A program made the position numbers and the translations under genes. The notes below the pieces were generated by a model. It made no database searches. It was not told the origin of the DNA and saw only the letters and a program-made list of their open reading frames with translations. A stretch of 21,072 bases of DNA from a virus (taxonomy: Duplodnaviria; Heunggongvirae; Uroviricota; Caudoviricetes), in the IMG/VR virus record IMGVR_UViG_2547132035_000002; one strand, given 5' to 3'. Below are positions 1,791 through 21,072 of the stretch, piece after piece; position 1 is the stretch's first letter; each line of letters starts with the position of its first letter.

Positions 1791-1816
1791 TCATCTCCAG
1801 CAGAATCTTACTGCTA
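1791..1816 (-). promoter_or_regulatory. Conserved Ntn leader element, copy 1
   Basis: TAGCAG-TAAGATT-CTGCT-GGAGATGA, with TGTTATAAT at 1832-1840 upstream. Confidence 0.8.
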
Positions 1817-1840
1817 TTTTTTTCTATTTACATTATAACA

Positions 1841-1869
1841 AAAAAATCAGCATTTACTGCTGATTTTTT
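1841..1869. terminator. Bidirectional intrinsic terminator overlapping the NERD stop codon
   Basis: Perfect 12-bp inverted repeat AAAAAATCAGCA-TTTAC-TGCTGATTTTTT. Confidence 0.75.
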
Positions 1870-2702
1870 AGTATATTCTTTATTCTATCTATATCTGCAC
1901 CATTTAATGCATTTTCCTTGCCAGATGATACAATTTTATGTATAAGACTTCTTTCATCAAGAAAAATCTTCTCTGAACCGACATAGCATTGACTTTCTAG
2001 AATATAAACATATGAATCAATCCAGCAGTTAATATTATTTTCTTTTAATATTTGTGAAAGAATATATGTCTGTCTCTTTGCCTGCTTTAATGGATTTTTG
2101 ATTGATGAAGTATATTCTTTTCCCTGATTGGATATTTTTGTAAAACTCCACTCACTATCTTCTTCTTTCCCTCTAAGAGTTCCTTTATAGCTTTTTGTTT
2201 CAACTATAACAATTCCCTTTGGGCTTAAAATAAGATTATCAATTTCTGCCACCTTATCTTCATACTTAATAGATACATTAGATAAAATAGTATAATCTGC
2301 GGGTAATTTTAAGAGAGTTTTTTGAGTAGCTCTTTCGCCCTTTAATCCTGATTTTAGAATTTTATAACGTTTTTGACAAAAAGCAAATACAACAGCTGAA
2401 ATCATAAAAATTGCAAACAATGGTGCAAATCCACTAAATAAATTAATATTTTCATTTATAGCATTTGAAAAAGCTACATGGTCATCAAATAATTTAGCTG
2501 TCTGCGTTTGGTTATAAAACATGAATACAAAATATAAAAAATATGAAACCACACCACATATACTTAAAACCATACCCCAAAAATAATATTTTATTTTCTT
2601 CTCATTATCAATTAAGAGTTTTGTCTTATAATTTGATGAAACAAACTTTACCCCTACCCCTATACAAATAATTGAAACAAATAAAATAATAAGATATTTC
2701 AT
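1854..2702 (-). CDS. Membrane-anchored NERD-domain nuclease-related protein
   Basis: N-terminal TM segments followed by the NERD/PD-(D/E)xK motif EIDNLILSPKGIVIVETKSYKG and NPLKQAKRQ. RBS AAGGAGG. Confidence 0.85.
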   Translation of the reverse strand: MKYLIILFVSIICIGVGVKFVSSNYKTKLLIDNEKKIKYYFWGMVLSICGVVSYFLYFVFMFYNQTQTAKLFDDHVAFSNAINENINLFSGFAPLFAIFMISAVVFAFCQKRYKILKSGLKGERATQKTLLKLPADYTILSNVSIKYEDKVAEIDNLILSPKGIVIVETKSYKGTLRGKEEDSEWSFTKISNQGKEYTSSIKNPLKQAKRQTYILSQILKENNINCWIDSYVYILESQCYVGSEKIFLDERSLIHKIVSSGKENALNGADIDRIKNILKNQQ

Positions 2703-2833
2703 AAAAATTCCCTCCTTGTTATTATTCTACAGCAATATGTTAAAAATTGGTAGTATTTGTCGATATAAACTTTTATTCTAAGAGTTTAAATGATATAATA
2801 TTGAAAAACAAATAATCCAAAGGAGCATAAAGA

Positions 2834-3223
2834 ATGAAAAGAAATATTGGAATTTTATTAATTTGTATTGGTTGTTTAGGAACACTCTACTCTGGATTTC
2901 ATATGATAAATAACCAAGATTCTTCAGACAATAAGACTAATAACATGCAGAACAAATTTAATGAACAGGCTGAAAATATTAAAAAACAGCAGCAGGAAGT
3001 TCAGAAAGAATATGATAAGAAAAAAGCTGAATTTGAAAAGCAGAAAAAGGAAATTGAAAAAAAGTCAAAGCAGATTCAATCAGAAGTTGAAAAGCAGAAA
3101 GAAGAGACAAATCAAAAAGTCAATGAAATCCAAAAAGAGATTGAAAATTCCGAAAACGCACAAAAACAGGTTCGAGACAATATGGCTGAAGTCATTGATG
3201 GGTTAGAGAATTCAACCCAATAA
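2834..3223 (+). CDS. Signal-anchored coiled-coil hypothetical protein (129 aa)
   Basis: AGGAG RBS at 2821-2825 and TGATATAAT at 2791-2799. N-terminal hydrophobic segment and a Q/E/K-rich heptad region. It is followed by a terminator at 3287-3310. Confidence 0.75.
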   Translation: MKRNIGILLICIGCLGTLYSGFHMINNQDSSDNKTNNMQNKFNEQAENIKKQQQEVQKEYDKKKAEFEKQKKEIEKKSKQIQSEVEKQKEETNQKVNEIQKEIENSENAQKQVRDNMAEVIDGLENSTQ

Positions 3224-3286
3224 ATCTGTAAAATTATAATATATCAGATACTTATTTGATTGAGTACTGCTACTTACAATAGCATA

Positions 3287-3310
3287 AAAAAGGAACAGTC
3301 GTTCCTTTTT
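3287..3310. terminator. Bidirectional intrinsic terminator between convergent genes
   Basis: AAAAAGGAAC-AGTC-GTTCCTTTTT. Confidence 0.8.
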
Positions 3311-3319
3311 AGTATCTAT

Positions 3320-4027
3320 TTAATTTTCATCCAAGCCTGCATTAAATTCATCATTTAAGATTAACATACAAATACCATCTTCGATACCACAGTTATTGTA
3401 TAAATCTGTGCTATTCTTATAATGAATTAATTTATAGCCTTCACTATACTCAGATTGATTATTCTTCAATAACTTACTTAACCAGATTTCCTTGCTGTCT
3501 TCATCATAGCCTGCTACAACTTTACATCTTTTCAGATTATCATAATCTTTATTGATGTCTACTTCTCTGTCATAAAAAACAATTTGACCCTTTCCGACTG
3601 TGGCTCCTTTTTGTGTTAAGGTCATATCTCCTCCTGAGACATTAAATCCAGAATTAACATTTCCTACACTTCCAAGGTCAGGTTTTATTGAAGCATTTTG
3701 GAGTATTTCAATGCTGCTAGCATCCTTTTTACCATTCAGTTTATTATTGATAATATCTTCTCTTGATTCAAACTCTGCTAGATTAGCACTGATAATTTTA
3801 TCATTCTTCACATACATGATGAGTCCATTCCATGTGTTTTTTCCGTTCTCATCTAATTTTGTTAACGTATAGACACCATTATATTTTTTGTTTCTTTTTG
3901 TTTTAACTTTATATGATGTATCTCCATCTGCCTTTTTGCTATTGTAGTATTCAAACCCTTTTACTAATCCAAACGCAATGGCAAGAACAACAGCAATTGC
4001 TAAAACACTTTTTATAAATCCTTTCAT
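3320..4027 (-). CDS. Membrane-anchored hypothetical protein, paralogue B of 1-789
   Basis: 235-aa ORF with an N-terminal TM segment. It shares conserved blocks with 1-789 and has the identical 84-bp upstream region. Confidence 0.8.
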   Translation of the reverse strand: MKGFIKSVLAIAVVLAIAFGLVKGFEYYNSKKADGDTSYKVKTKRNKKYNGVYTLTKLDENGKNTWNGLIMYVKNDKIISANLAEFESREDIINNKLNGKKDASSIEILQNASIKPDLGSVGNVNSGFNVSGGDMTLTQKGATVGKGQIVFYDREVDINKDYDNLKRCKVVAGYDEDSKEIWLSKLLKNNQSEYSEGYKLIHYKNSTDLYNNCGIEDGICMLILNDEFNAGLDEN

Positions 4028-4036
4028 AATATTTTA

Positions 4037-4120
4037 AACCTCCATATATAAAGAGGATAAAATCATATCCTCACATCGTTTACTTTAACAAGTTTATTAT
4101 ATCATACTGAAGATGGAATT
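4037..4120. repeat. 84-bp perfect direct repeat, copy 2
   Basis: Identical to 797-880 (offset 3240 bp). Confidence 0.95.
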
Positions 4121-4235
4121 GCTATATGATGGTTAGTAGTTCGGCACTGAAGTGTTAATTTAGTGTTACTGTTCAGTGCTATTAGTGGTTATAGTTATAA
4201 TTTAGAGTTTTAGGAGGATATGAAAATATCTATTC

Positions 4236-4985
4236 TCATATATTCTTACATGAGACTATATTATTTGAATGAATAAGTTTTCCTTGTCGATTTATTTGTG
4301 CCCACTGTATAGGTCCACCAACTTTTCTCTCGTCTATTGGTAACTTTGATTCTAATTTACTATATTTTTTTATGATTTTAAATACTTTTTCTTTTATAAA
4401 TAATATTTTTACTGTCTTGAAGAATTTAGTATTTATCTCATACCAATACGTGCCAAAAGATGTAAAATTCAGATTTATACGCTCTGTCAATTCATAACTG
4501 TATGTTCCCGAAGTATTTTTCACAATTTCAAATGCTCTGCTTATTATAGTTTGATTTGTTACATCATAATAAACAATAAAATATTGTACTACTTTTTCAT
4601 AATCATTATTCAATCTCATATCATTAATAAACTTATACGATTTTTCCAACAATTCGTGTAAACATTCTTGAAAATTATAACCATTATATCTCTGAACAAA
4701 TGCATTCATAAAATCTAGGATATTTACAATATCTCCATTATCATATGTAGCAGAATTTTCTCCAGCACTCGATAAAATACATGGGAATTTTTTATTAATG
4801 GTAATTTTTTGAATCATATGATTATGGATTGAACTTGTATTCCATGAGTCACTAGCTACTAATGTTTTATACTTATTTCTAGCATGTATTAAACAGGTCA
4901 TTCTTCTTCTATCCCTTCTTATACTATTATAACTCATTGAAATGGGCTTATTGTTTCTATAACTATTACTTCTGATAAAAATCAT
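4236..4985 (-). CDS. Proteasome-beta-like Ntn-hydrolase family protein, copy 2 (Thr-type; internal/mature start 4901)
   Basis: After Met29 it reads TCLIHARNKYKTLVASDSWNT (Thr1, Asp17), then QKI, SSAG and a C-terminal KVGGPIQWAQINRQG. Confidence 0.7.
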   Translation of the reverse strand: MIFIRSNSYRNNKPISMSYNSIRRDRRRMTCLIHARNKYKTLVASDSWNTSSIHNHMIQKITINKKFPCILSSAGENSATYDNGDIVNILDFMNAFVQRYNGYNFQECLHELLEKSYKFINDMRLNNDYEKVVQYFIVYYDVTNQTIISRAFEIVKNTSGTYSYELTERINLNFTSFGTYWYEINTKFFKTVKILFIKEKVFKIIKKYSKLESKLPIDERKVGGPIQWAQINRQGKLIHSNNIVSCKNI

Positions 4986-5004
4986 CTCCAGCAGTTGACT
5001 GCTA
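4982..5004 (-). promoter_or_regulatory. Conserved Ntn leader element, copy 2
   Basis: TAGCAG-TCAA-CTGCT-GGAGATGA, with TGTTAAAAT at 5010-5018. 4982-5018 is identical to 10515-10551 (37 bp). Confidence 0.8.
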
Positions 5005-5032
5005 TACTTATTTTAACAAATTAAAAATTTGA

Positions 5033-6166
5033 TTATGTTATATTCCTCCATGACTTAAGTAATTTATTGAGAATTATTCCAACTCTTAAACGTTCCTTAT
5101 AAACTTGAGTTTTCTTATTAGTTTCAGTTTTAATATAATGATAATCTTCTGTTTCTTGTAATTGCTTTTCAATATCCTTTATATTCTCCATTGCATAGTT
5201 TTCAAATTGGATTCTCTCTTCATTTGATATATAAAGAAGAACAACGTTTTGCAAACATCTTAAAGCATGATTCTGTTCAGGATTACTCTCATCATAAAGG
5301 AAGTTTAAAAGCCTATATTTATTATCATTTACGATATAATATCTATATGAATAAAAATTGTGTTGAAAAATATCTCTATAAATAAAACCAGGTGTAGGAG
5401 TAGGGATAGATAAACGTCTAGCATCTAATTCAACAATTTGATAGCTCTTTAATTTTGTGTAATTATAATAAATATTTAATAATCCAAATGCTGTACTTTC
5501 ATTAGTCATAGCATATGAATAAAATTCATCTATAGGTCTATCAATTTCATCATATTCTTTTTGAAGAGTATACTCTGGCCTATATATATTATAAAAATAA
5601 TTATCATTCTCCACCCACTCTAATTTATTTTCTAATCTATCATATATGTAGTCCAAATGGGATTTTGTTAAACCCAATCTTTTTTTCCAAAGATTTTCTA
5701 TTTCATCTATGTCTGCATTCCCATCATTTTGTGTATTTCTGTCTCCATTGCGGACATAAATACAACCTGCTTTCATCCTTCCATAATGGTTTTTCAAATA
5801 TATAGGAGTCTTATCTGTATTATAGATAATCAATACATCTAATTCGATATTATCATACAGTATGGTATCAACTTCTACTTTAGGATAATTGTCTCCTGCA
5901 AAATGTAGTTTTGAAATTGCATCAATAATATCTGCCTGTTTTCTTCTGTTTTTTCTCATACCTACAATTTCTAAATTATCAGAGATACCAAAAATAAGAT
6001 AACAGTCCTCATTATGAACTGTATTACTAAAGCATATTATATCTTTTATTAAATCTTCGATTCTTTCATGCCACTCCTGTTTAAAATCCCAATATTCTCC
6101 TTCCTTTCCCTTTCTGATAAAAAAATCAATAAAATCTGCTCCTTTATAAAGTTTTAATGTACTCAT
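5033..6166 (-). CDS. Schlafen/AlbA_2-domain protein (putative nuclease, defence-associated)
   Basis: N-terminal EGEYWDFKQEW...LIKDIICFSNT...YLIFGISD is the characteristic AlbA_2 pattern, with IYVRNGDRN later in the domain. RBS AGGAG. Confidence 0.8.
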   Translation of the reverse strand: MSTLKLYKGADFIDFFIRKGKEGEYWDFKQEWHERIEDLIKDIICFSNTVHNEDCYLIFGISDNLEIVGMRKNRRKQADIIDAISKLHFAGDNYPKVEVDTILYDNIELDVLIIYNTDKTPIYLKNHYGRMKAGCIYVRNGDRNTQNDGNADIDEIENLWKKRLGLTKSHLDYIYDRLENKLEWVENDNYFYNIYRPEYTLQKEYDEIDRPIDEFYSYAMTNESTAFGLLNIYYNYTKLKSYQIVELDARRLSIPTPTPGFIYRDIFQHNFYSYRYYIVNDNKYRLLNFLYDESNPEQNHALRCLQNVVLLYISNEERIQFENYAMENIKDIEKQLQETEDYHYIKTETNKKTQVYKERLRVGIILNKLLKSWRNIT

Positions 6167-6191
6167 ATGTTTCTCCTAAATTTTTTATATT

Positions 6192-7733
6192 TTAGTTAAT
6201 CAAACCATCTGCTTGTTTAAGCATTTCTAACTCTCTTTCATATTGCATAATAGCATTCTTCATTAGCCATTTTCTTCTATCATAATCCCAGGTATCCAGA
6301 TATTCTTGATTATAAAATAATGAAAAATTATGGATTGTTGATATAATTTGGTCATGCTTCTGTGACCAATCATGCAAGCGTCTTGGAGCAAGTGGTAAAT
6401 CATTATGCTTAAAAAATAACATTGATATTTGTTTACCAATAGGCTCAACTCTACTTACAAGTTCTTCTTCACATATAACATTATTAATATATTCTCTAAA
6501 AATTTTAATATATTGTTCCGCTGCATATATAATCTCAACTGTATATTTTTTAGTTAATTCTATAAACTCATTATCACTCATATTACTTTGTTGCATTGTC
6601 TTTATCAATTTATATGCATTGTTTGTCTGAATATAAACATTGTTTTTTATTTTGGCATTTTCTCCCATATAATACCATTCGTTCTTATCCTGAGCATCAT
6701 CCACCCATGTTGCATTATAAGCAAAGTTACTATTAACTATGTCATCTTCATCATATCCAAAATAATAAAAAACAACATTAGGTGGATTATTCTTATAAAT
6801 TCTTTCAGCTGTTTCATTTTGATATACTTCACAATCTGAGATTGTATTTTTTATTTCTTTTGCTATTTCTCCAACTTGTTCTTCTGTAGATTGATATCTT
6901 AATATTACCTTGACTGCAAACCTCTTTGATTTTGAATTATGTAAAGGTTCAACAGAATAAATAATATAATCTTCTGTGTCTACGTATACCTTTTGAACTT
7001 TATAGGGGTTATATTCTTCAACATCAAAAAATATTGTTCCTCCTATACTTGAACGAAATACAGGATTTTGAATATTTCTAGAATTATTTTCTTTATCCAA
7101 TGCTTTTTTATTGGCTATTTCTGCAAATCTGAAAACAGCTTCATTAATAGACTCTAGAGATTTTCGCCCTTCCCTAATAAGAGAACGTACTAAAAAGGCA
7201 TCACAGACAAAACTGGTATAAAGGCTTATCTTTCTTTCAGCATGAAACCAAGAAAATTGGTCTACACCACATGAAGCCATTACAGCAAATCCATGTCCCA
7301 CAAACTGTTCTATAGTTTTTTCAATACTAATTGCGGGAGTTTTATCCAACTCAAAGTTTCCTGAATGACAACTATCTATAATTGCTATTTTATTTTTCGC
7401 AGGAATACTATCTATTTTGTTAAGTAGGCCCTGTAGAAAAACATTATCAATACTTAGACATAAGCAACCATTTCCACCATGACCCGAGAAATAAAAAATG
7501 TATGTATCATCTTCTGTAATTCCAATTATAGATTTATTTATAGTCTCTTTAAATGTATTTGATAATACAATTCCTGATTCTCCACACATTAGAATATTTT
7601 CTGGCTTTACATTAATTCCTTGAATCAATGATTTTCTCATAGCATATAAATCGTTTTTACATAAAGGTAATGATGTACAATCTCTTCTACGATAATCGCT
7701 AACAGCAACTAAAACTGCTTTCACTTTTCCCAT
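6192..7733 (-). CDS. Caspase-like (peptidase C14) protein with an uncharacterised C-terminal region
   Basis: KAVLVAVSDY...CKND, with catalytic dyad motifs YFSGHGG (His ~7479-7481) and IIDSCHSG (Cys ~7368-7370). Confidence 0.85.
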   Translation of the reverse strand: MGKVKAVLVAVSDYRRRDCTSLPLCKNDLYAMRKSLIQGINVKPENILMCGESGIVLSNTFKETINKSIIGITEDDTYIFYFSGHGGNGCLCLSIDNVFLQGLLNKIDSIPAKNKIAIIDSCHSGNFELDKTPAISIEKTIEQFVGHGFAVMASCGVDQFSWFHAERKISLYTSFVCDAFLVRSLIREGRKSLESINEAVFRFAEIANKKALDKENNSRNIQNPVFRSSIGGTIFFDVEEYNPYKVQKVYVDTEDYIIYSVEPLHNSKSKRFAVKVILRYQSTEEQVGEIAKEIKNTISDCEVYQNETAERIYKNNPPNVVFYYFGYDEDDIVNSNFAYNATWVDDAQDKNEWYYMGENAKIKNNVYIQTNNAYKLIKTMQQSNMSDNEFIELTKKYTVEIIYAAEQYIKIFREYINNVICEEELVSRVEPIGKQISMLFFKHNDLPLAPRRLHDWSQKHDQIISTIHNFSLFYNQEYLDTWDYDRRKWLMKNAIMQYERELEMLKQADGLIN

Positions 7734-7750
7734 GTTCTATTCTCCAATTT

Positions 7751-8863
7751 TTATTTTTTAAATCCAATATCGATAGGTTGATATTTATTTTTGATATATC
7801 TTGCAATGCTATCAAAATCCCCATAAATGAATTTTTCATTAATTCCCATCAAATCTAATTCTTCTAATATTTTATCCTTGTTTTCTACAACTATTATCAT
7901 ATCGGGCCATACTCTTTGTTGAGAGATAATGTGACTTCCAAAAGTACTTTCATCATATGAAAGATATGCCTGATAGATGAATAAGCCCTGTTGATTTCGC
8001 CCCCTTTCGAAAGATAAGATAGGATTATAAATAAAATTCGGAATACAATTGAGCCACCAAACAATTCCCTCATCCTCAACTATCTTTTTTAAAAAATCCT
8101 GCAACATCAACAAATATTCCAACACAACAATTTCTTTTGAATGATAATTATGTTCTATTTCCGTATATAACTCCTTATTCTTTTGAATAAATGTATAATC
8201 TATATAAGACTCATATAATCCCTTATTAAACTTTGGAAATCTTGACCTTTTTGGTGTTATAGGTTCCTTGTCAATGAAGTAATATCTATAGTCATCATAT
8301 AAACACTTAAAATATACATAAAATTCATATGGAAACTGCCTATAAAAACTCAAAAATTTATCATAGAAGTTTAAAATAATATTCCCATCATTTTTTATTA
8401 AACTCATTAAGATATTTTTATCCTCGTTTTTTAAAACAATGTCTGTGACATCAATAAGTCTATTTTTGACTATGTATACAAATCCTCGTTCTTCATCATA
8501 GCTTTCATCAGTATTATGAAAAGACTGACATGCAAAAAACAATGCTACTAATGGAGAATATGTAAAGTCTATTAAATTTGTTGGAATTCCATGATGCTGA
8601 GAAAAAGCAAGAAAACTCCCCTGCTCAGTTGAACTAATCTTATAAGAAACTTCTCTGTTAAAATCATTTATCATCTTAATAAATGGATATTCACCATTTC
8701 TTAATCCAGAAGATATAGTTTCCAAGAAGTTAGTTGGCTCACCTCTATAAATACAACTATCAAACTTGTTATCTGAAAACAATTTTATATAATCTGATAA
8801 GTTTCTAATTACTTTCTCGTTTGGCGTTTTTAAGTTTTTTATATCTCTTTTAGAATATCTCAT
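7751..8863 (-). CDS. FRG-domain protein
   Basis: IYRGE plus QHHGIPTNLIDFTYSPLVALFFAC (FRG signature), R..NQQGLF, and the C-terminal ILEELDLMGINEKFIYGD. Confidence 0.9.
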   Translation of the reverse strand: MRYSKRDIKNLKTPNEKVIRNLSDYIKLFSDNKFDSCIYRGEPTNFLETISSGLRNGEYPFIKMINDFNREVSYKISSTEQGSFLAFSQHHGIPTNLIDFTYSPLVALFFACQSFHNTDESYDEERGFVYIVKNRLIDVTDIVLKNEDKNILMSLIKNDGNIILNFYDKFLSFYRQFPYEFYVYFKCLYDDYRYYFIDKEPITPKRSRFPKFNKGLYESYIDYTFIQKNKELYTEIEHNYHSKEIVVLEYLLMLQDFLKKIVEDEGIVWWLNCIPNFIYNPILSFERGRNQQGLFIYQAYLSYDESTFGSHIISQQRVWPDMIIVVENKDKILEELDLMGINEKFIYGDFDSIARYIKNKYQPIDIGFKK

Positions 8864-8900
8864 ATTATTCCTTCTTTCTATAATAAACTGACTATTATTT

Positions 8901-8914
8901 TTATTTTAACACAA
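8901..8914 (-). promoter_or_regulatory. Extended -10 promoter of the FRG-caspase-Schlafen operon
   Basis: TTGTGTTAAAATAA, identical over 14 bp to 10541-10554 upstream of leader copy 4. Confidence 0.5.
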
Positions 8915-8969
8915 GAATATATTAGGACATACTCTTTTATAAATTTCTTTAATATTATCAATTCTATAA

Positions 8970-8998
8970 TAAAAAAACAAAAAGAGGCTTGAGCCCCT
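8970..8998 (-). terminator. Intrinsic terminator after Ntn copy 3
   Basis: Minus strand reads AGGGGC-TCAA-GCCTCT followed by TTTTGTTTTTTT, overlapping the TAG stop. Confidence 0.65.
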
Positions 8999-9650
8999 AC
9001 TGAAATATTTCTACATTCACAGGTTTCCCTACATCATTGTACTCAATTTCAGAAAATACATCTTTTGCATCAATAATTGTTTCAATATAATTTTTAATCA
9101 TATCAGCATATTTAGATATTTCGATATGATTATAAAATGTTTGATTATTATATAAATGACAATAAAACTCACTACCTCCATAAAAAACCTGTTTTCCATA
9201 TTCCTTTTTTGAAAAAACAATTCTTTTATCATATTCTATGAAACATCGAAGCAAAAAATATTTATTGTTCTTGTTTTTGCTTCCTATTATAAAAGCATAT
9301 TTTCCATCATGATAATCGCCTTTATCATTTTGGATAGCCTCATCAAGAGATTTAAAAAAAATTTCATAGTCAATTCCGTTTTTTAAATGTTCAGCAATAT
9401 AATCTTCTATATTCACTCTATTCTTTTCAGAAAAGATTTCATTATGACCATGTGTAACAAAAATAAATTTATCATTTTTAAATATTTTAGTTATCTTTCC
9501 TCTTTGGACGTCCTCACCTATCACACCATTTGCAAACCTTAATGTTGCTTTACTATCCGCAAAACCAATGATTCCCTCTCTTGTATTATGCAAGCCAACA
9601 AAGCTCATATTTTCTCCAACCTTTCTTATGCTATTTGTTTTACATTCCAT
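8997..9650 (-). CDS. Proteasome-beta-like Ntn-hydrolase family protein, copy 3 (Ser-type; internal/mature start 9608)
   Basis: After Met15 it reads SFVGLHNTREGIIGFADSKAT (Ser1, Asp17), then TKIFK, FVTHG and a C-terminal VGKPVNVEIFQ. Confidence 0.75.
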   Translation of the reverse strand: MECKTNSIRKVGENMSFVGLHNTREGIIGFADSKATLRFANGVIGEDVQRGKITKIFKNDKFIFVTHGHNEIFSEKNRVNIEDYIAEHLKNGIDYEIFFKSLDEAIQNDKGDYHDGKYAFIIGSKNKNNKYFLLRCFIEYDKRIVFSKKEYGKQVFYGGSEFYCHLYNNQTFYNHIEISKYADMIKNYIETIIDAKDVFSEIEYNDVGKPVNVEIFQ

Positions 9651-9654
9651 TATT

Positions 9655-9677
9655 TCATCTCCAGCAGAGTACTGCTA
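9655..9677 (-). promoter_or_regulatory. Conserved Ntn leader element, copy 3
   Basis: TAGCAG-TACT-CTGCT-GGAGATGA, with TATAAT at 9685-9690. Confidence 0.8.
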
Positions 9678-9690
9678 TATATTTATTATA

Positions 9691-10509
9691 TTAAAAATTC
9701 TCTTCAACGCCATTCATATAGGTACAGACATTTCCTTGAATATCCATATAAACCTCATAAATAGGATTTCCTATAGTTTTATCTGCTTTGTTATTCTTTT
9801 TTTCTCTATCATTTTTTTGAATCTGTTGCCTAATCTTGTTGAATACAATTTTTTGTATATTATCTGTTTCCTTTGGAATTTTTTTTATATGCCTTTTATT
9901 AGTATTAAATAATTCAGCATATGTTCCTATGCAATTAAAAGCAGGATTGCCCTCTTTTGTGAAGTCAATAATATACATATAATATTCTTTGCTTGTCCCT
10001 ATCTCATTTAAAACTAAATTTTCATTTTTTATGAGCTGTGCCTCTTTCACTTTTTTGATTTCCACTCTCTTTGTTTTTATTTTTCCTTCATCTATCCAAG
10101 CAATATAATATTGAATAAACTTTGCTCTGTCTTCAATATCCATATCCTCTAAAAACTCTGCTGATTTTAAAATAAGATTATTGTACAATACATCAAAGGA
10201 AGTATAAGCATTTAGCAACTCTGTAATTATATCTTTAACATAAATAATATTAAAATCATCATATGATTTAGAATTATCTCCAGCACTTGCTATAATTACG
10301 CTTTTATCTTTGTTAACGAACAGTTTCTGGATAAAATGATTGTCTCTTGGATTTGTATTCCATGAGTCTGCACCGATACATATACTCTTCTTAGTCTGCA
10401 TACCTATAATACTTGTCATATCATAAAAATTCCTTTCTATACTCACATCTAATTTCTTAGAATAATCAACAGGCATAATTGAACGCGAATGTGATTCTTT
10501 TCTAGCCAT
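9691..10509 (-). CDS. Proteasome-beta-like Ntn-hydrolase family protein, copy 4 (Thr-type; internal/mature start 10419)
   Basis: After Met31 it reads TSIIGMQTKKSICIGADSWNT (Thr1, Asp17), then QKLF, IASAG and a C-terminal TIGNPIYEVYMDIQG. Confidence 0.75.
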   Translation of the reverse strand: MARKESHSRSIMPVDYSKKLDVSIERNFYDMTSIIGMQTKKSICIGADSWNTNPRDNHFIQKLFVNKDKSVIIASAGDNSKSYDDFNIIYVKDIITELLNAYTSFDVLYNNLILKSAEFLEDMDIEDRAKFIQYYIAWIDEGKIKTKRVEIKKVKEAQLIKNENLVLNEIGTSKEYYMYIIDFTKEGNPAFNCIGTYAELFNTNKRHIKKIPKETDNIQKIVFNKIRQQIQKNDREKKNNKADKTIGNPIYEVYMDIQGNVCTYMNGVEENF

Positions 10510-10514
10510 TTACC

Positions 10515-10537
10515 TCATCTCCAGCAGTTGACTGCTA
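10515..10537 (-). promoter_or_regulatory. Conserved Ntn leader element, copy 4
   Basis: TAGCAG-TCAA-CTGCT-GGAGATGA. The TGTTAAAAT at 10543-10551 overlaps the stop codon of the NACHT gene. Confidence 0.8.
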
Positions 10538-10545
10538 TACTTATT

Positions 10546-13500
10546 TTAACACAATAAGAATTCAATACATTTTAATAAACTTTCAAAAAGCTTAATACTC
10601 ATCTCTTTATCTCCTAAATAGGCGAAAACCTTTATCATCTCACCAAAACCATCATGTCCTCCTCCATTTTCTATAAGATACTTCATCATTTCTGATTTAG
10701 ATAATGGATTTTTTAAGGCTGCAGCAACAGTCATCCAAAAATTCAAACTATTATTTGAATATCTATTGGTACTTGGATAATGATAATCCTTAAACATATT
10801 AACAATTTTGTTAACATTTCCTGTAATATCCAAAGACTTTTGAATAAGGACTTCATTTATTTCAATAGAATCTAGCTTATGTGCTCTTCGAATCTCCTGA
10901 ATAAATGAATTTAGAGCTTCTTCTTTATTGATTGCCTTAAGTATTTCTAAGGAATTAATTTTATTAGTTTTATGAATTTCAGTAGGATAATTACTAACTC
11001 TCTTTTTAACATCTACTTGTTTATTAAATTCATTACACAATTTTATATACAGATTATATTCAGCTTCATTTAATTCTTTATTCCAGCCACTATCAACCAT
11101 AGATTTAATAACTTTTTCAGCCTTATCAAAATATTCTCTTTGTGTGTTTTTATCATAAAAATCACATGATGCAATTTTTAAATATACATTAATTTTATGA
11201 TAGAAATAATCCAAATTAAATTTTTGAAAATAATCATTAATTAAATATCTTGCATTTTTAAGACATTCTTCAGCCAATTCAATTTTTTGTCCTCTGCTTA
11301 CAATCCCCAAAGCCATTTCATAATGGACTCGATTATCATCAATAATTGATGATGATTGCCTATAACAATATATAGCCATATCAAAATCATATTGAATAAG
11401 TATATTTATTAGCATACTATGAGTGGAATTTTGGATATTATATTTTTTCATTTGGACCGTTATCTCCAAAATTTTATCCAAATAAGCTTTTAATTTTTCA
11501 GAAGTTAGCCAATTGTTTTTAATAATACACTTCAATCCAGGAATGAGCACACTATCTGCTAAACTGTCCTTGCTCTCATCCATTCTCATAACCACACTTC
11601 TTATTCCTTGCATTAATAAATTATATCCCTGTATACTTTCTTTAGAAGATGTTATGAAGGATAATTGGAAAAGTGATTCACTTGTTGATATATAATCAAT
11701 ATCATAATAAATATCTTCTCTATTCAACTGTTCTATCATAGATGAATTAATAAGCTTATCGTATTGTTGAGAATTATATGATTTTAATGTAAAATAAACT
11801 TTTAATAAGTTTTCGTTGTCCGTATTATAATTAACATAATCTATTACATTTTTTAGTTCTACTATATCCAAACTTGCAAATGCTATTGCTTTACCTATGA
11901 GTTTCTGACCCAGATATTTCATCTTTTTTGCATTATTTAGGTATTCAACAAGTTGAGACGCAAAATACTGTAAAGAGCAGTCGCAAGTTATGAGTCTATA
12001 ATAGTCTCTGTACAACATTATATAATCTATTATTGATGCATGTCCCTTTGCTTTGACATTAAGTGGTATAAATAAGAAACTGATAAAGTCAATATTATCT
12101 TCATTTAATGAAAAGTAGTCAAATTTTTGCCCTTCCAGGAAAATTGTCAAAGACTCTCTTTCATTTACTGTCAATTGCACATTTATAATACCTTTTAAGG
12201 CTATACAAGCCAGACTGCTCAATTTGTTTCCAGTAATTTCATCAGCTAAAACTGTTTGAAGAGTTTTTAGAATGACATTATTATTTAAAATTCTTTCCAG
12301 ACATTCCACTGTAGCCATAGAAACAATAAATATACTTAATTGATTGTAATTCATTTCAGAAATGGTTTTTGCACATTTCTGTGGATAATACATAATGAGA
12401 TTATAATAAATAGCAGTTATTTGATTTATAGATATATCATTATTGTTCTTAAGTAAATTATCAATATTTATATCTTTGCTATTCTCTATTAAGTTATCTA
12501 ATATTTTATCAACATCGCAATTCAAAATAATCATTTTAATATATACTAGATTCCTCCAGACAAGAAAATTATCTCTTACAGATGCATTATAATAGTATTT
12601 ATTGCCTTGGCTTAAGTTGTCGATTGTAAGAAATTTATCTAAATATATAGATAAATACTCTCTTTTTCCATATTGATACATTAAAGAAATTAAGCTTATA
12701 AAATTTCTATAAAAATAATCTAAATCCTGGTAATTGGTATTTCCAGTTTGTAATAAAGAAATAGTTTTATCCCCCATATAATTAAAGAACTTATGAATAG
12801 GCAATGAAGTATCATTAAGAACAATCTCAAATAAATCATGAGAAAGTCCTGCAATTGCATAAACTATGTAATTAGACCAATAGTAAGGATACTTATCAAC
12901 TCCCCAATTGTCATCATTATCTAAATAAACATTAAATAAACTGATTTCAAATGCTAAGGGTAAATCATTATTCTTTTCTGATTGATTTTGGAGATGAGGA
13001 ATAAGTAAATTTTCAAACATATCATAATTAACGATTATATCTTTCTTTCTTAAAAAACATAAATCTTCTTTCATCATTGTTTCAAATTTTAAAATTGCAA
13101 AGTATTCTAAAAAACGTCTATGCTGATAAGAAAAAATAAAGCTATTATCAGTTAAATTATAATCAAAAAAGCAGTCAGATAAATATGAAATAATATTATT
13201 TTGTGATTGATAATCACACTTTGGATAATATTTAGAAATAATACTTATTAGTCTTTCTCGTGTGAAACTGAATTCATTATCTATAAATAGCGAATAGGAT
13301 AATTCCTTATTTATTTTTAAAATTGCATTTTCTTTCGGATTAGGCAGATTAAGTCCATCCAAATACTTTTTGTAATGGATATCATTAAGTGTTGTATGAA
13401 TACTTAGATTTAATAAATCAGAAAGAAAATGAGTATGCTTTATTTGAAGGATATATTCCCAAAACAGAGATAAGGTTAGAATATCTGGTAGATTATCATA

Positions 13501-14616
13501 TAAGTTTTCATTGTTTTCATAAAAAATTTCAAATTGTCTACTTCTATCTATGTCATTTTTACTTTGAAAATACTTATTTATTAAATCCTTAGATAAATCA
13601 ACAATTGTATATTCTTCAATGTTTTGAAATGTTGCTTTAAGGATAAATTTATTATGACTTGATATTCGAGATGAAATAATTATCTTTTTTGTTTGGTCTT
13701 TATCCAAAAGTCCTTCTATAAATAATAGAGTTTGTGTGACAATTTGGTTTGGCACTTCATCAAAACCATCAAGTAAGTATATAAATTTATTTATTGAAGT
13801 ATTTGCATAATACATTTTTTTATAGTTATTTATTATCTTTTCCAGATTATCGAAAGATGTGTTATTAAGATTTATAAATACACATAACGCATTCACAGAT
13901 TCAATTTTTCGAAGTTGATTATCAGCTGATTCTTCTTCTAATCCTGAAAAAATGTTAGAGATTTTTCTCATACAAACACTTTTTCCAGTTCCCGCATTTC
14001 CTGTTAATAGAAACAGTTTGGAATTTTTTTCTAAAATTTCATTACAAAAATGAGTTATTGTTAAAACATCCTTATTATTTTTTAATTGCAACTCAAGATA
14101 TTCTTTTGAATGTAAAAGAGTATTCATTCTAACACTTTTGCTATCTGCAATCGCTTCTAAAAGATTGGTATCACCAAAAAAGAATTCTGCCAAGTCTAAA
14201 TTATTAGGCTGATTGAGTTCAACTTCAAAGTTTTGAGGTAAATACCATATAAGTTCTATATTTTCTTTCCTACAAATATCCTCTATTTTTTTGGCAGCAT
14301 TACATGTTGTTTTGACAAATAGATTTACATACACAATGATATAATCGAGGTTTTTATATGCTTTCACAGCTTTTGATATTGATTGACTAATATTTAAGTA
14401 ATTCATATTCTTCTCAAAGAATTTACTTTGAAATCCCCACCATTTTCCATCACAATCCTGAATAGGTTCAGTTTCTAAACCAACTTGATTAAAATCTGTA
14501 TGGATGCCTTCAGTTATTTGAAACTTACGACAAAACAAAAAATAACACAAACTCTCAAACGCTTCTGTAGTATTTTTATTTTTAAGTTGAAATTTACTCC
14601 AATTTATAGTAATCAT
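10546..14616 (-). CDS. AVAST-like STAND/NACHT NTPase with an N-terminal PD-(D/E)xK (Mrr-like) nuclease and a long helical C-terminal region
   Basis: Walker A GNAGTGKS (~13978-14001), Walker B YLLDGFDEV, sensor IIISSR and F.HRRFLEYFA. The N-terminus carries FESLC...GLE...GFQSKFF (E..E..QxK). The start was moved to 14616 because GGAGGAG lies 8 nt upstream; the ORF-track start is 14634. Confidence 0.8.
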   Translation of the reverse strand: MITINWSKFQLKNKNTTEAFESLCYFLFCRKFQITEGIHTDFNQVGLETEPIQDCDGKWWGFQSKFFEKNMNYLNISQSISKAVKAYKNLDYIIVYVNLFVKTTCNAAKKIEDICRKENIELIWYLPQNFEVELNQPNNLDLAEFFFGDTNLLEAIADSKSVRMNTLLHSKEYLELQLKNNKDVLTITHFCNEILEKNSKLFLLTGNAGTGKSVCMRKISNIFSGLEEESADNQLRKIESVNALCVFINLNNTSFDNLEKIINNYKKMYYANTSINKFIYLLDGFDEVPNQIVTQTLLFIEGLLDKDQTKKIIISSRISSHNKFILKATFQNIEEYTIVDLSKDLINKYFQSKNDIDRSRQFEIFYENNENLYDNLPDILTLSLFWEYILQIKHTHFLSDLLNLSIHTTLNDIHYKKYLDGLNLPNPKENAILKINKELSYSLFIDNEFSFTRERLISIISKYYPKCDYQSQNNIISYLSDCFFDYNLTDNSFIFSYQHRRFLEYFAILKFETMMKEDLCFLRKKDIIVNYDMFENLLIPHLQNQSEKNNDLPLAFEISLFNVYLDNDDNWGVDKYPYYWSNYIVYAIAGLSHDLFEIVLNDTSLPIHKFFNYMGDKTISLLQTGNTNYQDLDYFYRNFISLISLMYQYGKREYLSIYLDKFLTIDNLSQGNKYYYNASVRDNFLVWRNLVYIKMIILNCDVDKILDNLIENSKDINIDNLLKNNNDISINQITAIYYNLIMYYPQKCAKTISEMNYNQLSIFIVSMATVECLERILNNNVILKTLQTVLADEITGNKLSSLACIALKGIINVQLTVNERESLTIFLEGQKFDYFSLNEDNIDFISFLFIPLNVKAKGHASIIDYIMLYRDYYRLITCDCSLQYFASQLVEYLNNAKKMKYLGQKLIGKAIAFASLDIVELKNVIDYVNYNTDNENLLKVYFTLKSYNSQQYDKLINSSMIEQLNREDIYYDIDYISTSESLFQLSFITSSKESIQGYNLLMQGIRSVVMRMDESKDSLADSVLIPGLKCIIKNNWLTSEKLKAYLDKILEITVQMKKYNIQNSTHSMLINILIQYDFDMAIYCYRQSSSIIDDNRVHYEMALGIVSRGQKIELAEECLKNARYLINDYFQKFNLDYFYHKINVYLKIASCDFYDKNTQREYFDKAEKVIKSMVDSGWNKELNEAEYNLYIKLCNEFNKQVDVKKRVSNYPTEIHKTNKINSLEILKAINKEEALNSFIQEIRRAHKLDSIEINEVLIQKSLDITGNVNKIVNMFKDYHYPSTNRYSNNSLNFWMTVAAALKNPLSKSEMMKYLIENGGGHDGFGEMIKVFAYLGDKEMSIKLFESLLKCIEFLLC

Positions 14617-14733
14617 TATGAAAACTCCTCCCATATATATTTCTATAATACAACATTTTTCACACCAATATAGAATAAATAGATATTTTTATTAAAAAAC
14701 AGACTATCTTCTTGCTTTATCTTTATACAAGAT

Positions 14734-14783
14734 AAAAAGAAGCCTTGAATACTGATAATATTAACCAGTATTTAAAGCTTCTT
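14734..14783 (-). terminator. Long intrinsic terminator after Ntn copy 5
   Basis: 18-bp imperfect inverted repeat AAGAAGCCTTGAATACTG (14737-14754) / CAGTATTTAAAGCTTCTT (14766-14783), with a T-tract on the minus strand. Confidence 0.7.
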
Positions 14784-14809
14784 CTATCACCTAAATAAAT
14801 TTTATCTTT

Positions 14810-15451
14810 CTACTGAAATATCTCTACATTTACAGGGAGCCCTACAGGATTGTAGGAAGAAAACTTATCTACATCTTTGATTATATTTTCTATTTTATCT
14901 TTTATCTCATTTTGAATTAGCAATATTTGATTAAGTCTAAAATTAAAAGTATATGTCAAATGGGTATAGTAATCGTTTCCCATAGTATAAGTTTGCAAAT
15001 CTCTAAACTTCTTACAAATAATTATTTGATTATTTATAATATCAACATGCTGTACATAATAGCCAAATTCATCTTTACTCCCAATTATAAATTTATATAA
15101 ATTATTAAAATTCAATTGATTTGAAGATATTCTACATAATAGTTTTTCAAAAAAATCAAAATAATTGTTGTAGTTATTAATATTATCTAACATAAAATTC
15201 TCTATATTTATATTAAAATTGCTTTCATCAAAGAATGTGTTGGCATTACATGTTACTAAAACATAATGATTGTTTTTAAAGACTTTTTGAATGTTTCCTC
15301 TTTTTGTATCTTCTTTGCTATTTCCTAATGCATCTCTTATAGTTCCTTTGCTATCTCCAAATGCTACAATACCATCATCACATATTGTCATTCCTACAAA
15401 GCTCATACTATTCATATCCCTTCTTATATTGTTTGATTGAACTGTTATCAT
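14810..15451 (-). CDS. Proteasome-beta-like Ntn-hydrolase family protein, copy 5 (Ser-type; internal/mature start 15406)
   Basis: After Met16 it reads SFVGMTICDDGIVAFGDSKGT (Ser1, Asp17), then QKVFK and a C-terminal PVGLPVNVEIFQ. Confidence 0.75.
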   Translation of the reverse strand: MITVQSNNIRRDMNSMSFVGMTICDDGIVAFGDSKGTIRDALGNSKEDTKRGNIQKVFKNNHYVLVTCNANTFFDESNFNINIENFMLDNINNYNNYFDFFEKLLCRISSNQLNFNNLYKFIIGSKDEFGYYVQHVDIINNQIIICKKFRDLQTYTMGNDYYTHLTYTFNFRLNQILLIQNEIKDKIENIIKDVDKFSSYNPVGLPVNVEIFQ

Positions 15452-15455
15452 TATT

Positions 15456-15478
15456 TCATCTCCAGCAACTGACTGCTA
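15456..15478 (-). promoter_or_regulatory. Conserved Ntn leader element, copy 5
   Basis: TAGCAG-TCAG-TTGCT-GGAGATGA, with one G-U wobble in the stem. No canonical -10 was seen. Confidence 0.75.
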
Positions 15479-15504
15479 TCTTGTTTAGCAAGTGAATCCC
15501 ATAA

Positions 15505-16665
15505 TTATATGATACACCAATAAATATAGTTTCCAGTTGTAAATTCTAGATATGCAGTCTTATCATTACAGAAAGATTTATCAAAATTCACAAATTCTCT
15601 ATTTATTAGCACCTCCGATTGATAATCTTTTAGTAATATTTCTTTATTAACAAGTTTATTATCTAATCCTTCCAATAATATGACTGGTTTTTCATAGCAT
15701 TTATCTTTTATATACCCAAAAATTGATTTATCCTCAACTATATATTCTTTCTTTAATTTATTTTGACTCTTAAACTTCTTTTCTTCAAATGAAAATGTAT
15801 TGTCAAAACACAATATTTGAATATCAGTCAAATCTTTTAATAATTTACTAAATTTATCCTTAGCTTTGCAGTCATAAATGGATATATCTGATAGTACATA
15901 AAGTATATAACTATATTTTTTACTAAAATCTAATTTAGTTAAATCTTTTGTTCGTTTCTCTTCTTTTCCTTCTTCTTTATAAAAATACATAGCGTTTGAA
16001 TAATTGTTTTTCAAGAATGTATATGCACTTTCCAATTTTGATATTTCTTCAAGTTTAAACGTATTCTTTGATAAGATATTCTTTTGAATTCTATTGATAA
16101 TATTACAATATTCTTGTGTAATATTGACATCATGAATAATTATGTCTTGAGAGGAAAAGAATTCATTAGCTCTCAAAAATGGAATTGGTATAATTATTGA
16201 GTCAAGATATATCTGAACTATATCCTCCAACTCATTTATGTTATCTTCAAATAAGTCATCTAATTCATTTAAATTATTCATAATTTTTAAACTGTTAAAT
16301 AACTCTTTTTCCATATCAGAATGCAACAAATCATCTTTATCTCCAATGCTATATCCAATGCTAGAACTGATACCAGTTGAAGTTCCTGAACTACTTGAAC
16401 ATGATACACCATGTGACATCCCCGAAGATTCACTCCAAGATGCTCCATATCCAACATCTGAACTATGTACTCTTCTTGTATTTACACCCTTTAACTCACT
16501 CTGAATAATCTTATAATTTTCAATCTGGTCTAAAACTTCCTGCTTTAGATGTTTCCCCTCTAAGGCATCTTTTATATTACTATAATACTTTCTTTTATAA
16601 TAAAATCCATTTGTATCCTTTGGATACAGATTAATACTGCTAATATCTACTTTCATTATCTCCAC
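15505..16665 (-). CDS. Hypothetical protein (386 aa) with a Ser/Gly-rich alternating segment
   Basis: RBS GAGGTGGAG and TGATATAAT at 16685-16693. Residues ~68-108 read SSDVGYGASWSESSGMSHGVSCSSSSGTSTGISSSIGYSIG. No family recognised. Confidence 0.7.
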   Translation of the reverse strand: MEIMKVDISSINLYPKDTNGFYYKRKYYSNIKDALEGKHLKQEVLDQIENYKIIQSELKGVNTRRVHSSDVGYGASWSESSGMSHGVSCSSSSGTSTGISSSIGYSIGDKDDLLHSDMEKELFNSLKIMNNLNELDDLFEDNINELEDIVQIYLDSIIIPIPFLRANEFFSSQDIIIHDVNITQEYCNIINRIQKNILSKNTFKLEEISKLESAYTFLKNNYSNAMYFYKEEGKEEKRTKDLTKLDFSKKYSYILYVLSDISIYDCKAKDKFSKLLKDLTDIQILCFDNTFSFEEKKFKSQNKLKKEYIVEDKSIFGYIKDKCYEKPVILLEGLDNKLVNKEILLKDYQSEVLINREFVNFDKSFCNDKTAYLEFTTGNYIYWCII

Positions 16666-16733
16666 CTCATAATTAATATATCTTATTATATCATAAGATG
16701 TTGAGAAGTTCTTCCAAGTCCAAACTCAGATAA

Positions 16734-17450
16734 TCAGTTAAAGAATGTTTCTTTTCCATTGATAAAAGTTTTTCCTTTTCCATATTTATTAAGTATAACA
16801 GTATACACATTTCCCCCTACTGTTGTGAGTCTTGTATCATCTATTGCCTCTTTGATAATGTTTGAAGTTATAGTCTCAGGTAATGAAGTATAAAACTTAT
16901 TAACAATAATGTCATCAACACCTTCTCCTGTATCCAACATATAATTATTAAATTTATATTTAGAATAGTTTTTTAAATCAATTTTACCAAAAGGGTAGAC
17001 GGAAACTGATTCATCACATCCAAGATTCCTTCTACTATAGCGAATTTCTAAAGCATAGCAATAAAATTCAAAATTATCCACCCAGAGAAATATTAATTTT
17101 GTGGGATTATCCAATTTAAATATTGAAAAAAGGTCTCTCATATCATTCTCAATGCCTAAAATTATATCCAATATATTCTCCCCAGTATATAAATCTAGAT
17201 ATTCGCGGATGCAATCTTTTAAATAAATTGTCCCTTTGTATGTTAAAACTTCACAAGTTCCTAACATTCCTATCATTAGCCCATTTTTATAAAACAATTT
17301 CCTATTATGAAAACTGATAATATTTAATTCTTTATTTGTAAACATGGAATCTGCTGAAATAGCTAATTGTTCTTGATTAGCCACAGCACATATTCTTGTC
17401 ATATGTTCTCCTTCTTTCATTTTTTTTTGCCAACTTATATTATCACTCAT
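16734..17450 (-). CDS. Proteasome-beta-like Ntn-hydrolase family protein, copy 6 (Thr-type; internal/mature start 17402)
   Basis: After Met17 it reads TRICAVANQEQLAISADSMFT (Thr1, Asp17), then RKLF, GMLG and a C-terminal TVGGNVYTVILNKYG. Confidence 0.75.
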   Translation of the reverse strand: MSDNISWQKKMKEGEHMTRICAVANQEQLAISADSMFTNKELNIISFHNRKLFYKNGLMIGMLGTCEVLTYKGTIYLKDCIREYLDLYTGENILDIILGIENDMRDLFSIFKLDNPTKLIFLWVDNFEFYCYALEIRYSRRNLGCDESVSVYPFGKIDLKNYSKYKFNNYMLDTGEGVDDIIVNKFYTSLPETITSNIIKEAIDDTRLTTVGGNVYTVILNKYGKGKTFINGKETFFN

Positions 17451-17458
17451 TCATTTTC

Positions 17459-17482
17459 TCATCTCCAGCAGAAGCACTGCTA
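17459..17482 (-). promoter_or_regulatory. Conserved Ntn leader element, copy 6
   Basis: TAGCAG-TGCTT-CTGCT-GGAGATGA, with TGATATAAT at 17490-17498. Confidence 0.8.
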
Positions 17483-17508
17483 TACATATATTATATCAAA
17501 ATATAATT

Positions 17509-19920: not shown

Positions 19921-21072
19921 CTAAACAGATACAAATTTTATTTTGTATTTATTAAAAATATTTAAAGCCTTCACATAATCTACATAATATGCCTGTTTAT
20001 AGCATTGTCTATGAACTGTATCAACTCCAATCACTTCAGCAATCCCATTTATATTCACAAATTCTCCTTCTATTTTTTCTAAATCATTTATATCTACGTA
20101 GAATCTTAATGCACTACTTAATGCATGTCTTGCTGTATTGACAATAATAGATATACTTTCTTCACCATTGTCCTCCTTAATTTGTATCTTCCCATTAAGA
20201 ATCAATACTGAATCTTCTTTTAAAAGATTCTCAATATCTGCATAAGCTTTAGGGAAGACAATAGCTTCACAGAAATCGTATTCATCTTCTATTTTTAGAA
20301 AAGCCATTGGCTCTCCACTTTTCTTTGTAAAAATCTGCTGTATAGAATTTATCTGACATAGAATTTGAATATCGTCTCCATCATTTAAATCTTGTATATC
20401 TGAAATCAGAGTATCATAGCCTTTTAGAACTCCTCGAATCTGCTCTAAGGGGTGTCCACTGATACAGCAATGAAGAACTCTTTTTTCATTATCGAGCTTT
20501 TCCTTAAAACCATATTCTGTACCATCATAGAACGCTTCACCACTTAAGCCATCCAAAATAGATGATTTATATATACTCTTAATCTGATTATGGTATTTCA
20601 CTGTTTCAAGAATTGATGGAGCTATCTCTCTCATCTTTTTTCTGCAGCCAAATATATCAAATGTCCCAGAATAGATAAGATTTGTAATCTGGTTATTGCG
20701 AATATTTGGACATTGGCTGATAAAATCATAAAACGTTTCACAATTGGAAAGCGTTTCAATAGTTTTTGCAATGTCTTCACCTATACCATCAATTCCGATA
20801 TATCCATAGCGAATAGCTGATTGGCCCTCGCTCTTTTCCACAGTGAACTTTGTTTGAGAGAATCTGATAGATGATGGAAGGATTTCTATACCCATCGCTT
20901 TTATCTCTGCTAAACATGATATAAGCTTATCCTTATTATCACTATTGATAGTACAGTTTGCAGCCATAAATTCTACAGGATAATAAGCTTTCAGGTATGC
21001 AGTTTCATAGGCGATGAGTGCATATGCTGCTGAATGAGATTTGTTAAATCCATACTCAGCAAATTTCTTTAT
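19921..21072 (-). CDS. dnaE: DNA polymerase III alpha subunit, C-terminal part (5'-truncated by the window edge)
   Basis: The frame is open to the window end and reads KFAEYGFNKSHSAAYALIAYETAYLKAYYPVEFMAA (DnaE signature). It continues with an HhH-like IGIDGIGE, SGHPL and the OB-fold TKKSGEPMAFLKIEDEYDFCEAIVFP. Confidence 0.92.
   Translation of the reverse strand: MKKFAEYGFNKSHSAAYALIAYETAYLKAYYPVEFMAANCTINSDNKDKLISCLAEIKAMGIEILPSSIRFSQTKFTVEKSEGQSAIRYGYIGIDGIGEDIAKTIETLSNCETFYDFISQCPNIRNNQITNLIYSGTFDIFGCRKKMREIAPSILETVKYHNQIKSIYKSSILDGLSGEAFYDGTEYGFKEKLDNEKRVLHCCISGHPLEQIRGVLKGYDTLISDIQDLNDGDDIQILCQINSIQQIFTKKSGEPMAFLKIEDEYDFCEAIVFPKAYADIENLLKEDSVLILNGKIQIKEDNGEESISIIVNTARHALSSALRFYVDINDLEKIEGEFVNINGIAEVIGVDTVHRQCYKQAYYVDYVKALNIFNKYKIKFVSV

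Follow-up and report, generated by a model that had tools for sequence, protein, structure and literature searches.

A repeated leader hairpin before apparently dual-start proteasome-like genes in the defence hotspot of a Coprobacillus cateniformis replicon: a probable structural mRNA leader and point of short-homology shuffling

The DNA considered here, hereafter the window, is a stretch of 21,072 nucleotides filed in IMG/VR as the virus record IMGVR_UViG_2547132035_000002. It contains six copies of a leader element of 23–26 nt, each of which precedes one proteasome-like gene, and the nature of this repeated leader is our subject. The window matches scaffold GL636582.1 (GCA_000186525.1) at 100% and also matches many gut contigs of 190–206 kb, and the element lies in a defence hotspot of a Coprobacillus cateniformis replicon of approximately 200 kb. 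Related contigs encode RepA_N, ArdC, ParA/ParB, TraG, DnaE and RadC, a complement which suggests that the host elements are large, plasmid-like replicons; none of these replicons is present in PLSDB, nor did any find a match in phage records. Other sequences are cited by our own L numbers where they need to be told apart.

All six genes are on the minus strand, with open reading frames (ORFs) of 213–272 aa. Gene 1 (1136–1786) has a long form of 216 aa and an internal start at 1741 followed by Ser1, with Asp17 and the Lys33 equivalent conserved. The internal start lies at 4901 in gene 2 (4236–4985; Thr1), where the upstream in-frame start is probably non-canonical or overlaps the ribosome site, at 9608 in gene 3 (8997–9650; Ser1), at 10419 in gene 4 (9691–10509; Thr1), at 15406 in gene 5 (14810–15451; Ser1) and at 17402 in gene 6 (16734–17450; Thr1). 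An AlphaFold model (predicted local distance difference test score 93) matches proteasome subunits and Anbu, with a template-modelling score of about 0.5 and E about 1e-6. Ser1 (Thr1 in the window genes so marked) and Asp17 are invariant, as is Lys at the Lys33 position, and by fold and by these residues the six genes qualify as predicted proteasome-like N-terminal nucleophile hydrolases, putatively proteases or transpeptidases. In C. cateniformis the proteins are named hypothetical, and relatives occur in Thomasclavelia ramosa and Massilimicrobiota. Profile searching assembled a family of 278 clusters (at 50% identity). The family is not recognised by PHROGs, PADLOC or Pfam, and no member was found in the viral contigs searched, nor any relative in phages or IMG/VR. 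In many strains a frameshift divides gene 4, the pieces of which occur on about 95 contigs. Gene 6 is found split in L114, and in L116 an integrative element (integrase, MobA/MobL) interrupts it; single paralogs therefore look dispensable.

The element consists of a hairpin adjoined by a purine-rich ribosome site, or Shine-Dalgarno site (SD1). Its copies, likewise all on the minus strand, lie at 1791–1816 (E1), 4982–5004 (E2), 9655–9677 (E3), 10515–10537 (E4), 15456–15478 (E5) and 17459–17482 (E6), with loops of 7, 4, 4, 4, 4 and 5 nt respectively. We count the stem as 6 bp, including the pair between its first U and the initial G of SD1; the innermost pair is G-U in E5. A single position among the 19 non-loop bases differs, in one of the six copies, while the six proteins are only 20–47% identical pairwise, and the element pattern produced 0 matches in 100 shuffles. 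Predicted folds of the six leaders contain the hairpin in every case (5 bp in E5) and leave SD1 open. A consensus or one-off -10 hexamer ends 15 nt upstream of E1 (1832–1837), 5 nt upstream of E2 (5010–5015), 7 nt upstream of E3 (9685–9690), 5 nt upstream of E4 (10543–10548) and 7 nt upstream of E6 (17490–17495), and none occurs within 17 nt upstream of E5. E3 lies 13 nt past the gene 4 stop, and the -10 hexamer of E4 overlaps the stop of an Avs4-like gene. The first-pass annotation, made from this sequence, had described six copies in these places, each before an N-terminal nucleophile gene and better conserved than the genes themselves, with loops of 4, 5 or 7 nt, a G-U wobble in the fifth copy and a -10 box 5–15 nt upstream of five copies; each of these observations was reproduced, and the genes concerned proved to form one family with a proteasome-beta/Anbu fold.

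An Rfam search returned five weak matches, none of them at the element, and a covariance-model search located the element almost exclusively before family genes. Both exceptions are in L247, one being a weaker match before a YdjM gene and the other an orphan element (4946–5135) followed by a 54-aa ORF that resembles one of the N-terminal extensions described below without the enzyme core. The replicon carries at least ten copies, counting the window and contig OFMJ01000037, four of them in a second cluster on the same replicon (L240 and L207 being on one contig with L162). Exact-pattern scans gave 20 single matches in the viral collection and 93 in the genome collection, none of which encodes a family member; the latter were treated as noise, the rough chance estimate being about 60. 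Inside the gene 4 coding sequence, at 10270–10298, there is a weak look-alike (E 0.5), which was dropped as a true copy and is probably a coincidence with a conserved protein motif.

Evidence that the element acts as RNA comes from other replicons. Leaders were gathered from seven related replicons into a 27-row alignment, in which 127 of 127 cells are paired and four of the five pairs have changed on both sides. The covariation score is 0.568, against 0.04–0.26 for slid controls, and, the rows being related, it reflects about five changes that arose independently, for the most part between replicons. Loops range from 3 to 8 nt across replicons, and where the palindrome is imperfect, in E5 and throughout the L250 copies, the deviating pairs are G-U on the sense strand. 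At 14970–15000 of L126, a third leader on that replicon has a shortened stem and a GNRA-type tetraloop, its 3' arm and SD being unchanged. Operators typically sit where the element does, between -10 and SD; the 4-nt spacer is the commonest and the sequence is replicon-specific. All of this would suit a palindromic operator in the DNA, immediately after the promoter, to which a plasmid repressor binds in a regulon of the EGeRS2/Reg576 or CUP type; such regulons exist on Firmicute plasmids (PMC8708921). However, an operator sits poorly with spacers of 4, 5 and 7 nt in the window and 3–8 nt elsewhere, with the exchange of two pairs between copies within one replicon (L122), with mismatches that are G-U on the sense strand and with promoterless copies that keep the element, and we regard it as quite improbable. 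Variation in loop length is a stronger argument on this point than the covariation. A resemblance to CIRCE or LexA boxes was considered and dropped on spacing.

A -10 hexamer ends 4–15 nt upstream in 18 of 29 copies, compared with a background of 5%, and this spacing implies that the stem would be at, or a few bases from, the transcript 5' end. SD1 in turn is followed by an in-frame start codon 11–16 nt from its first base, mostly canonical and non-canonical in three cases. The proposal of an RNA hairpin that abuts the ribosome site and is located at the 5' end or close to it thus gains from covariation, loop-length variation and -10 spacing alike, the first two of which favour RNA as the acting form. 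Four copies are also listed as plus-strand terminator-like sites, which might indicate a weak terminator of antisense transcription; but the T-rich tail of these sites is the AT-rich promoter spacer, the G-U pairs become A-C mismatches on that strand and the element is fused to a sense ribosome site, leaving opposite-strand action barely credible.

What SD1 translates is not the catalytic N-terminus. The codon preceding Ser1 or Thr1 is ATG in 33 of 36 family genes and GTG in the other three, and a purine-rich site stands at the right distance upstream of this internal start (p about 1e-16 over the 36 genes); in the window genes this second site (SD2) is 54–103 nt downstream of SD1. The frame upstream of the internal start is open for at least 14 codons in 36/36 genes, while a run of at least 11 open codons occurs in the remaining two frames in 12/36 and 8/36. 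Among 182 family proteins, residue -1 is Met in 168, Val in nine, Leu in three and Thr in two, and ten proteins are without an extension. The median extension is 45 aa in distant members, and 66 of 140 are at least 50 aa long against 4% expected by chance, lengths which may be inflated by a preference of cluster representatives for long calls, the frame test at DNA level being independent of gene calls. The extensions are mutually unrelated in sequence and coding-like in composition, with more Asp, Glu and Gly and less Leu than random DNA would give, and within one cluster they vary 2.5 times more than the core with the frame kept. Because an ATG or GTG with its own ribosome site precedes Ser1/Thr1 and the upstream frame is open, the genes look dual-start, SD1 apparently serving the extended form. 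Each gene would then yield two products, an extended form, probably inactive since the Ser1 amine would be blocked unless the protein is self-cleaving, and a mature Ser1/Thr1 form that is expected to be active. The first-pass annotation missed both this role of SD1 and the second site that would start the catalytic form. The dual start is found family-wide, and the hairpin is absent from part of the family. Elsewhere in the window (15505–16665), a 386-aa ORF with no family match contains a Ser/Gly-rich stretch (about residues 70–110) built of small motifs that are enriched in family extensions.

Within a replicon the copies are alike to a degree that their genes are not. Stem sequence tracks the replicon rather than the gene tree (replicon labels need 22 changes, against 23.3 for shuffled labels): the stems of sister genes cop_E5 and r250_f (98/91), which are on two replicons, differ, while paralogs on either side of the deepest branch share one stem, and in the ten copies of the present replicon the arms are fixed and the loops variable. 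In L250 the -10 region is homogenised as well as the stem; there, six tandem family genes (9150–13770) each have a near-identical extended -10 and their own version of the hairpin. Gene conversion can produce such homogeneity and is visible, and a replicon- or host-specific binding protein could produce it too. The main rival to a structural leader is accordingly a hairpin bound by a protein specific to the replicon, which would govern initiation at SD1 and so switch all paralogs between the extended (blocked) and mature (active) isoforms. The replicon-tracking stems, the fixed arms with variable loops and the contact between hairpin and SD1 all speak for it. It is countered by gene conversion seen directly, in the E3 loop carried by E1 and in chimeric copies, by the homogenised -10 region of L250, by unlike stems on the one replicon represented by L122/L123 and L126 and by the failure to find a candidate protein in the part of the replicon covered, and we consider it unlikely, although it deserves the most attention among the alternatives.

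Strain comparison shows the element to be a place of recombination. In L162 and L232, the upstream region of E6 is joined to E2 with the loss of 12.5 kb and a crossover in the left arm; in L176, E6 is joined to E3 with the loss of 7.8 kb and a crossover in the right arm, so that E6 is the left partner of both deletions. Assembly misjoins are an unlikely cause, since the stretches in common measure only 10–14 nt and one junction is present in two assemblies. In six contigs an AAA_15 pair replaces 5006–8994, a swappable cargo slot bounded on the left by the conserved 3' end of gene 3 and on the right by the base before E2; in the window this slot holds a minus-strand block (5033–8863) with FRG (PDC-S15-like), caspase and Schlafen/AlbA_2 (PDC-S50) genes. 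L114 lacks 9679–14809, with boundaries of the same kind, and hence E4, gene 4 and the minus-strand gene of an Avs4-like NACHT/STAND protein (10546–14634; PADLOC E 4e-34 for the N-terminal part). This Avs4-like gene is split in NCBI scaffold L117 and has a 68%-identical homologue in L247, where the NACHT gene and an E4-like leader precede a different paralog. Chimeric element copies occur, E1 carrying the E3 loop allele in some strains, and the upstream promoter sequence differs between copies and moves with the cargo.

These junctions might be taken to mark a dedicated recombination site, an attC-like hairpin defining the gene cassettes of an integron-like array, given that several independent junctions end in the element or 1 nt before it and that tandem genes begin 0–13 nt past the previous stop. 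Yet the crossover is not fixed to one arm, exchanges just as exact are found at the conserved 3' ends of the genes (8995) and at unrelated 119-nt leader repeats (769–887 and 4009–4127), no integrase was seen in the window or flanks, except for the unrelated inserted element in L116, and the element falls far short of attC in length and lacks conserved bulged bases. A dedicated site is, in our view, very unlikely; the moving crossover and the several kinds of repeat point instead to short-homology recombination, and the strain rearrangements to shuffling like that of PeSL cassettes (see below). The repeated leaders and conserved gene ends are a scaffold for the exchange of defence genes (Avs4-like, PDC-S15-like, PDC-S50 and caspase), with no integrase seen in the window or flanks. 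The 119-nt repeats themselves, 91% identical and each having an extended -10, a hairpin and a strong SD, precede two paralogous genes without an assigned function (1–789 and 3320–4027). The DnaE of the replicon (19921–21072 of the window; 1868–6078 of L114) is encoded by two ORFs of 454 and 734 aa in all strains, while that of related replicons is a single protein of 1164 aa.

We propose, with a probability of roughly 0.58, that the element is a structural mRNA leader, combining 5' protection, a long form from SD1 and a mature form from SD2 with short-homology shuffling. An extended -10 promoter would usually start the transcript 0–8 nt before the 6-bp hairpin, to judge from the spacing, and the hairpin, together with a ribosome at the adjoining SD1, may shield the 5' end from RppH and RNase J in the manner of the Bacillus subtilis aprE leader. 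SD1 would direct the long isoform with its variable, protein-like N-terminal extension, and SD2 with the ATG or GTG the mature Ser1/Thr1 enzyme; the architecture for both is in place, and use of the starts is presumed from it. Because otherwise diverged paralogs share a short repeat, short-homology recombination may keep the copies of a replicon alike and delete or swap the cargo between them, as the junctions attest. Each of the three roles suggested previously retains some support: 5' stabiliser has the most, recombination at the element, though observed, looks generic, and a protein-binding operator is a candidate role. The description as a novel cis-regulatory RNA is overstated, in that a 6-bp hairpin with an SD is modest and of a known type.

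Several observations weigh against this proposal. The leaders fold weakly (-4 to -7 kcal/mol, z about -0.7 to -1.9), approximately ten family genes have no hairpin and one L123 copy has an A-A mismatch in the stem. The covariation, lying mostly between replicons in some five independent events, is what a co-evolving protein would also give. A close -10 is missing from 11 of 29 copies, several of which begin 0–13 nt past an upstream stop and would therefore need processing to become 5'-terminal. Furthermore, structure alone would not account for arms that stay fixed within a replicon while loops drift. We keep in mind, as improbable, that the shared hairpin is a switch read by a replicon-specific factor and sets the ratio of mature to extended form for all paralogs of a plasmid-borne family. 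In the boldest version of that idea, the long form would resemble the Connectase amide intermediate, the variable peptide being bait or a transferred tag in conflict between plasmid, phage and host.

The structural leader has close parallels. The lambda S holin/antiholin gene is a dual-start gene, with two in-frame starts, each having its own ribosome site, a nearby hairpin and products of different activity. The starts of the present family are 11–220 codons apart, not two, and its product would be a protease or transpeptidase; the likeness is a resemblance only. Known 5' stabilisers combine a 5' stem-loop with an SD, as in the B. subtilis aprE type (Hambraeus 2002, as represented by its citation in PMC3997798). 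The element has a stem-loop with structural and covariation support and a strong SD adjoining it, and is like the aprE type in being a short, probably 5', hairpin beside a strong Shine-Dalgarno site in a Firmicute leader; it differs in being repeated and replicon-homogenised on a paralog family, in starting a translated extension and in having some operon-internal copies, and stabilisation is suggested by analogy.

The PeSL cassettes of T4-type phages are promoter/stem-loop/SD repeats, between which recombination deletes or swaps modules and makes chimeras (PMC2839356, PMC4122927). Repeated units in a variable region, with deletions, swaps and chimeric copies by recombination between copies, are common to both; but PeSL stem-loops are terminators, whereas the hairpin here is placed between -10 and SD, lacks a U-tract on the sense strand and received no sense-strand terminator call. 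The promoter is often outside the repeat, which accompanies a single gene family on a plasmid-like replicon, and the absence of relatives from phages and IMG/VR sets it apart from the T4-type setting. With crossovers in both arms and no integrase in the window or flanks, the integron attC comparison fails. The element is best explained as a probable aprE-type leader at which PeSL-like shuffling also takes place. Repeated upstream sequences on conjugative-type replicons are also known from p576, in whose leaders short hairpins are thought to extend RNA life (EGeRS2/Reg576, PMC8708921), and from the CUP repeats of the IncN establishment regulon, which also cause deletions (PMC3490853). In contrast to these, the element is 23–26 nt long without fixed geometry (spacer 3–8 nt), a cognate repressor was not identified in the part of the replicon covered, and the flanking cargo is defence-like, not anti-defence.

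Taken by itself, the hairpin adds one small and uncatalogued case to a leader type that is already known. Of greater interest is the unannotated family of proteasome-fold proteins (278 clusters at 50% identity) that it marks on large plasmid-like elements of common gut Firmicutes. Its members share with Anbu, Connectase and the Firmicute clusters FC1-5 (PMC8665760, PMC7980362) the fold, Ser/Thr1 and the equivalents of Asp17 and Lys33, and with Connectase a Met directly before the nucleophile. In a survey covering 22 new proteasome-like subfamilies, propeptides were confined to proteasome beta and HslV (PMC8665760). Unlike the surveyed families other than these two, nearly all members of the present family have two in-frame starts, the internal one preceded by an in-frame, hypervariable and fast-evolving extension.

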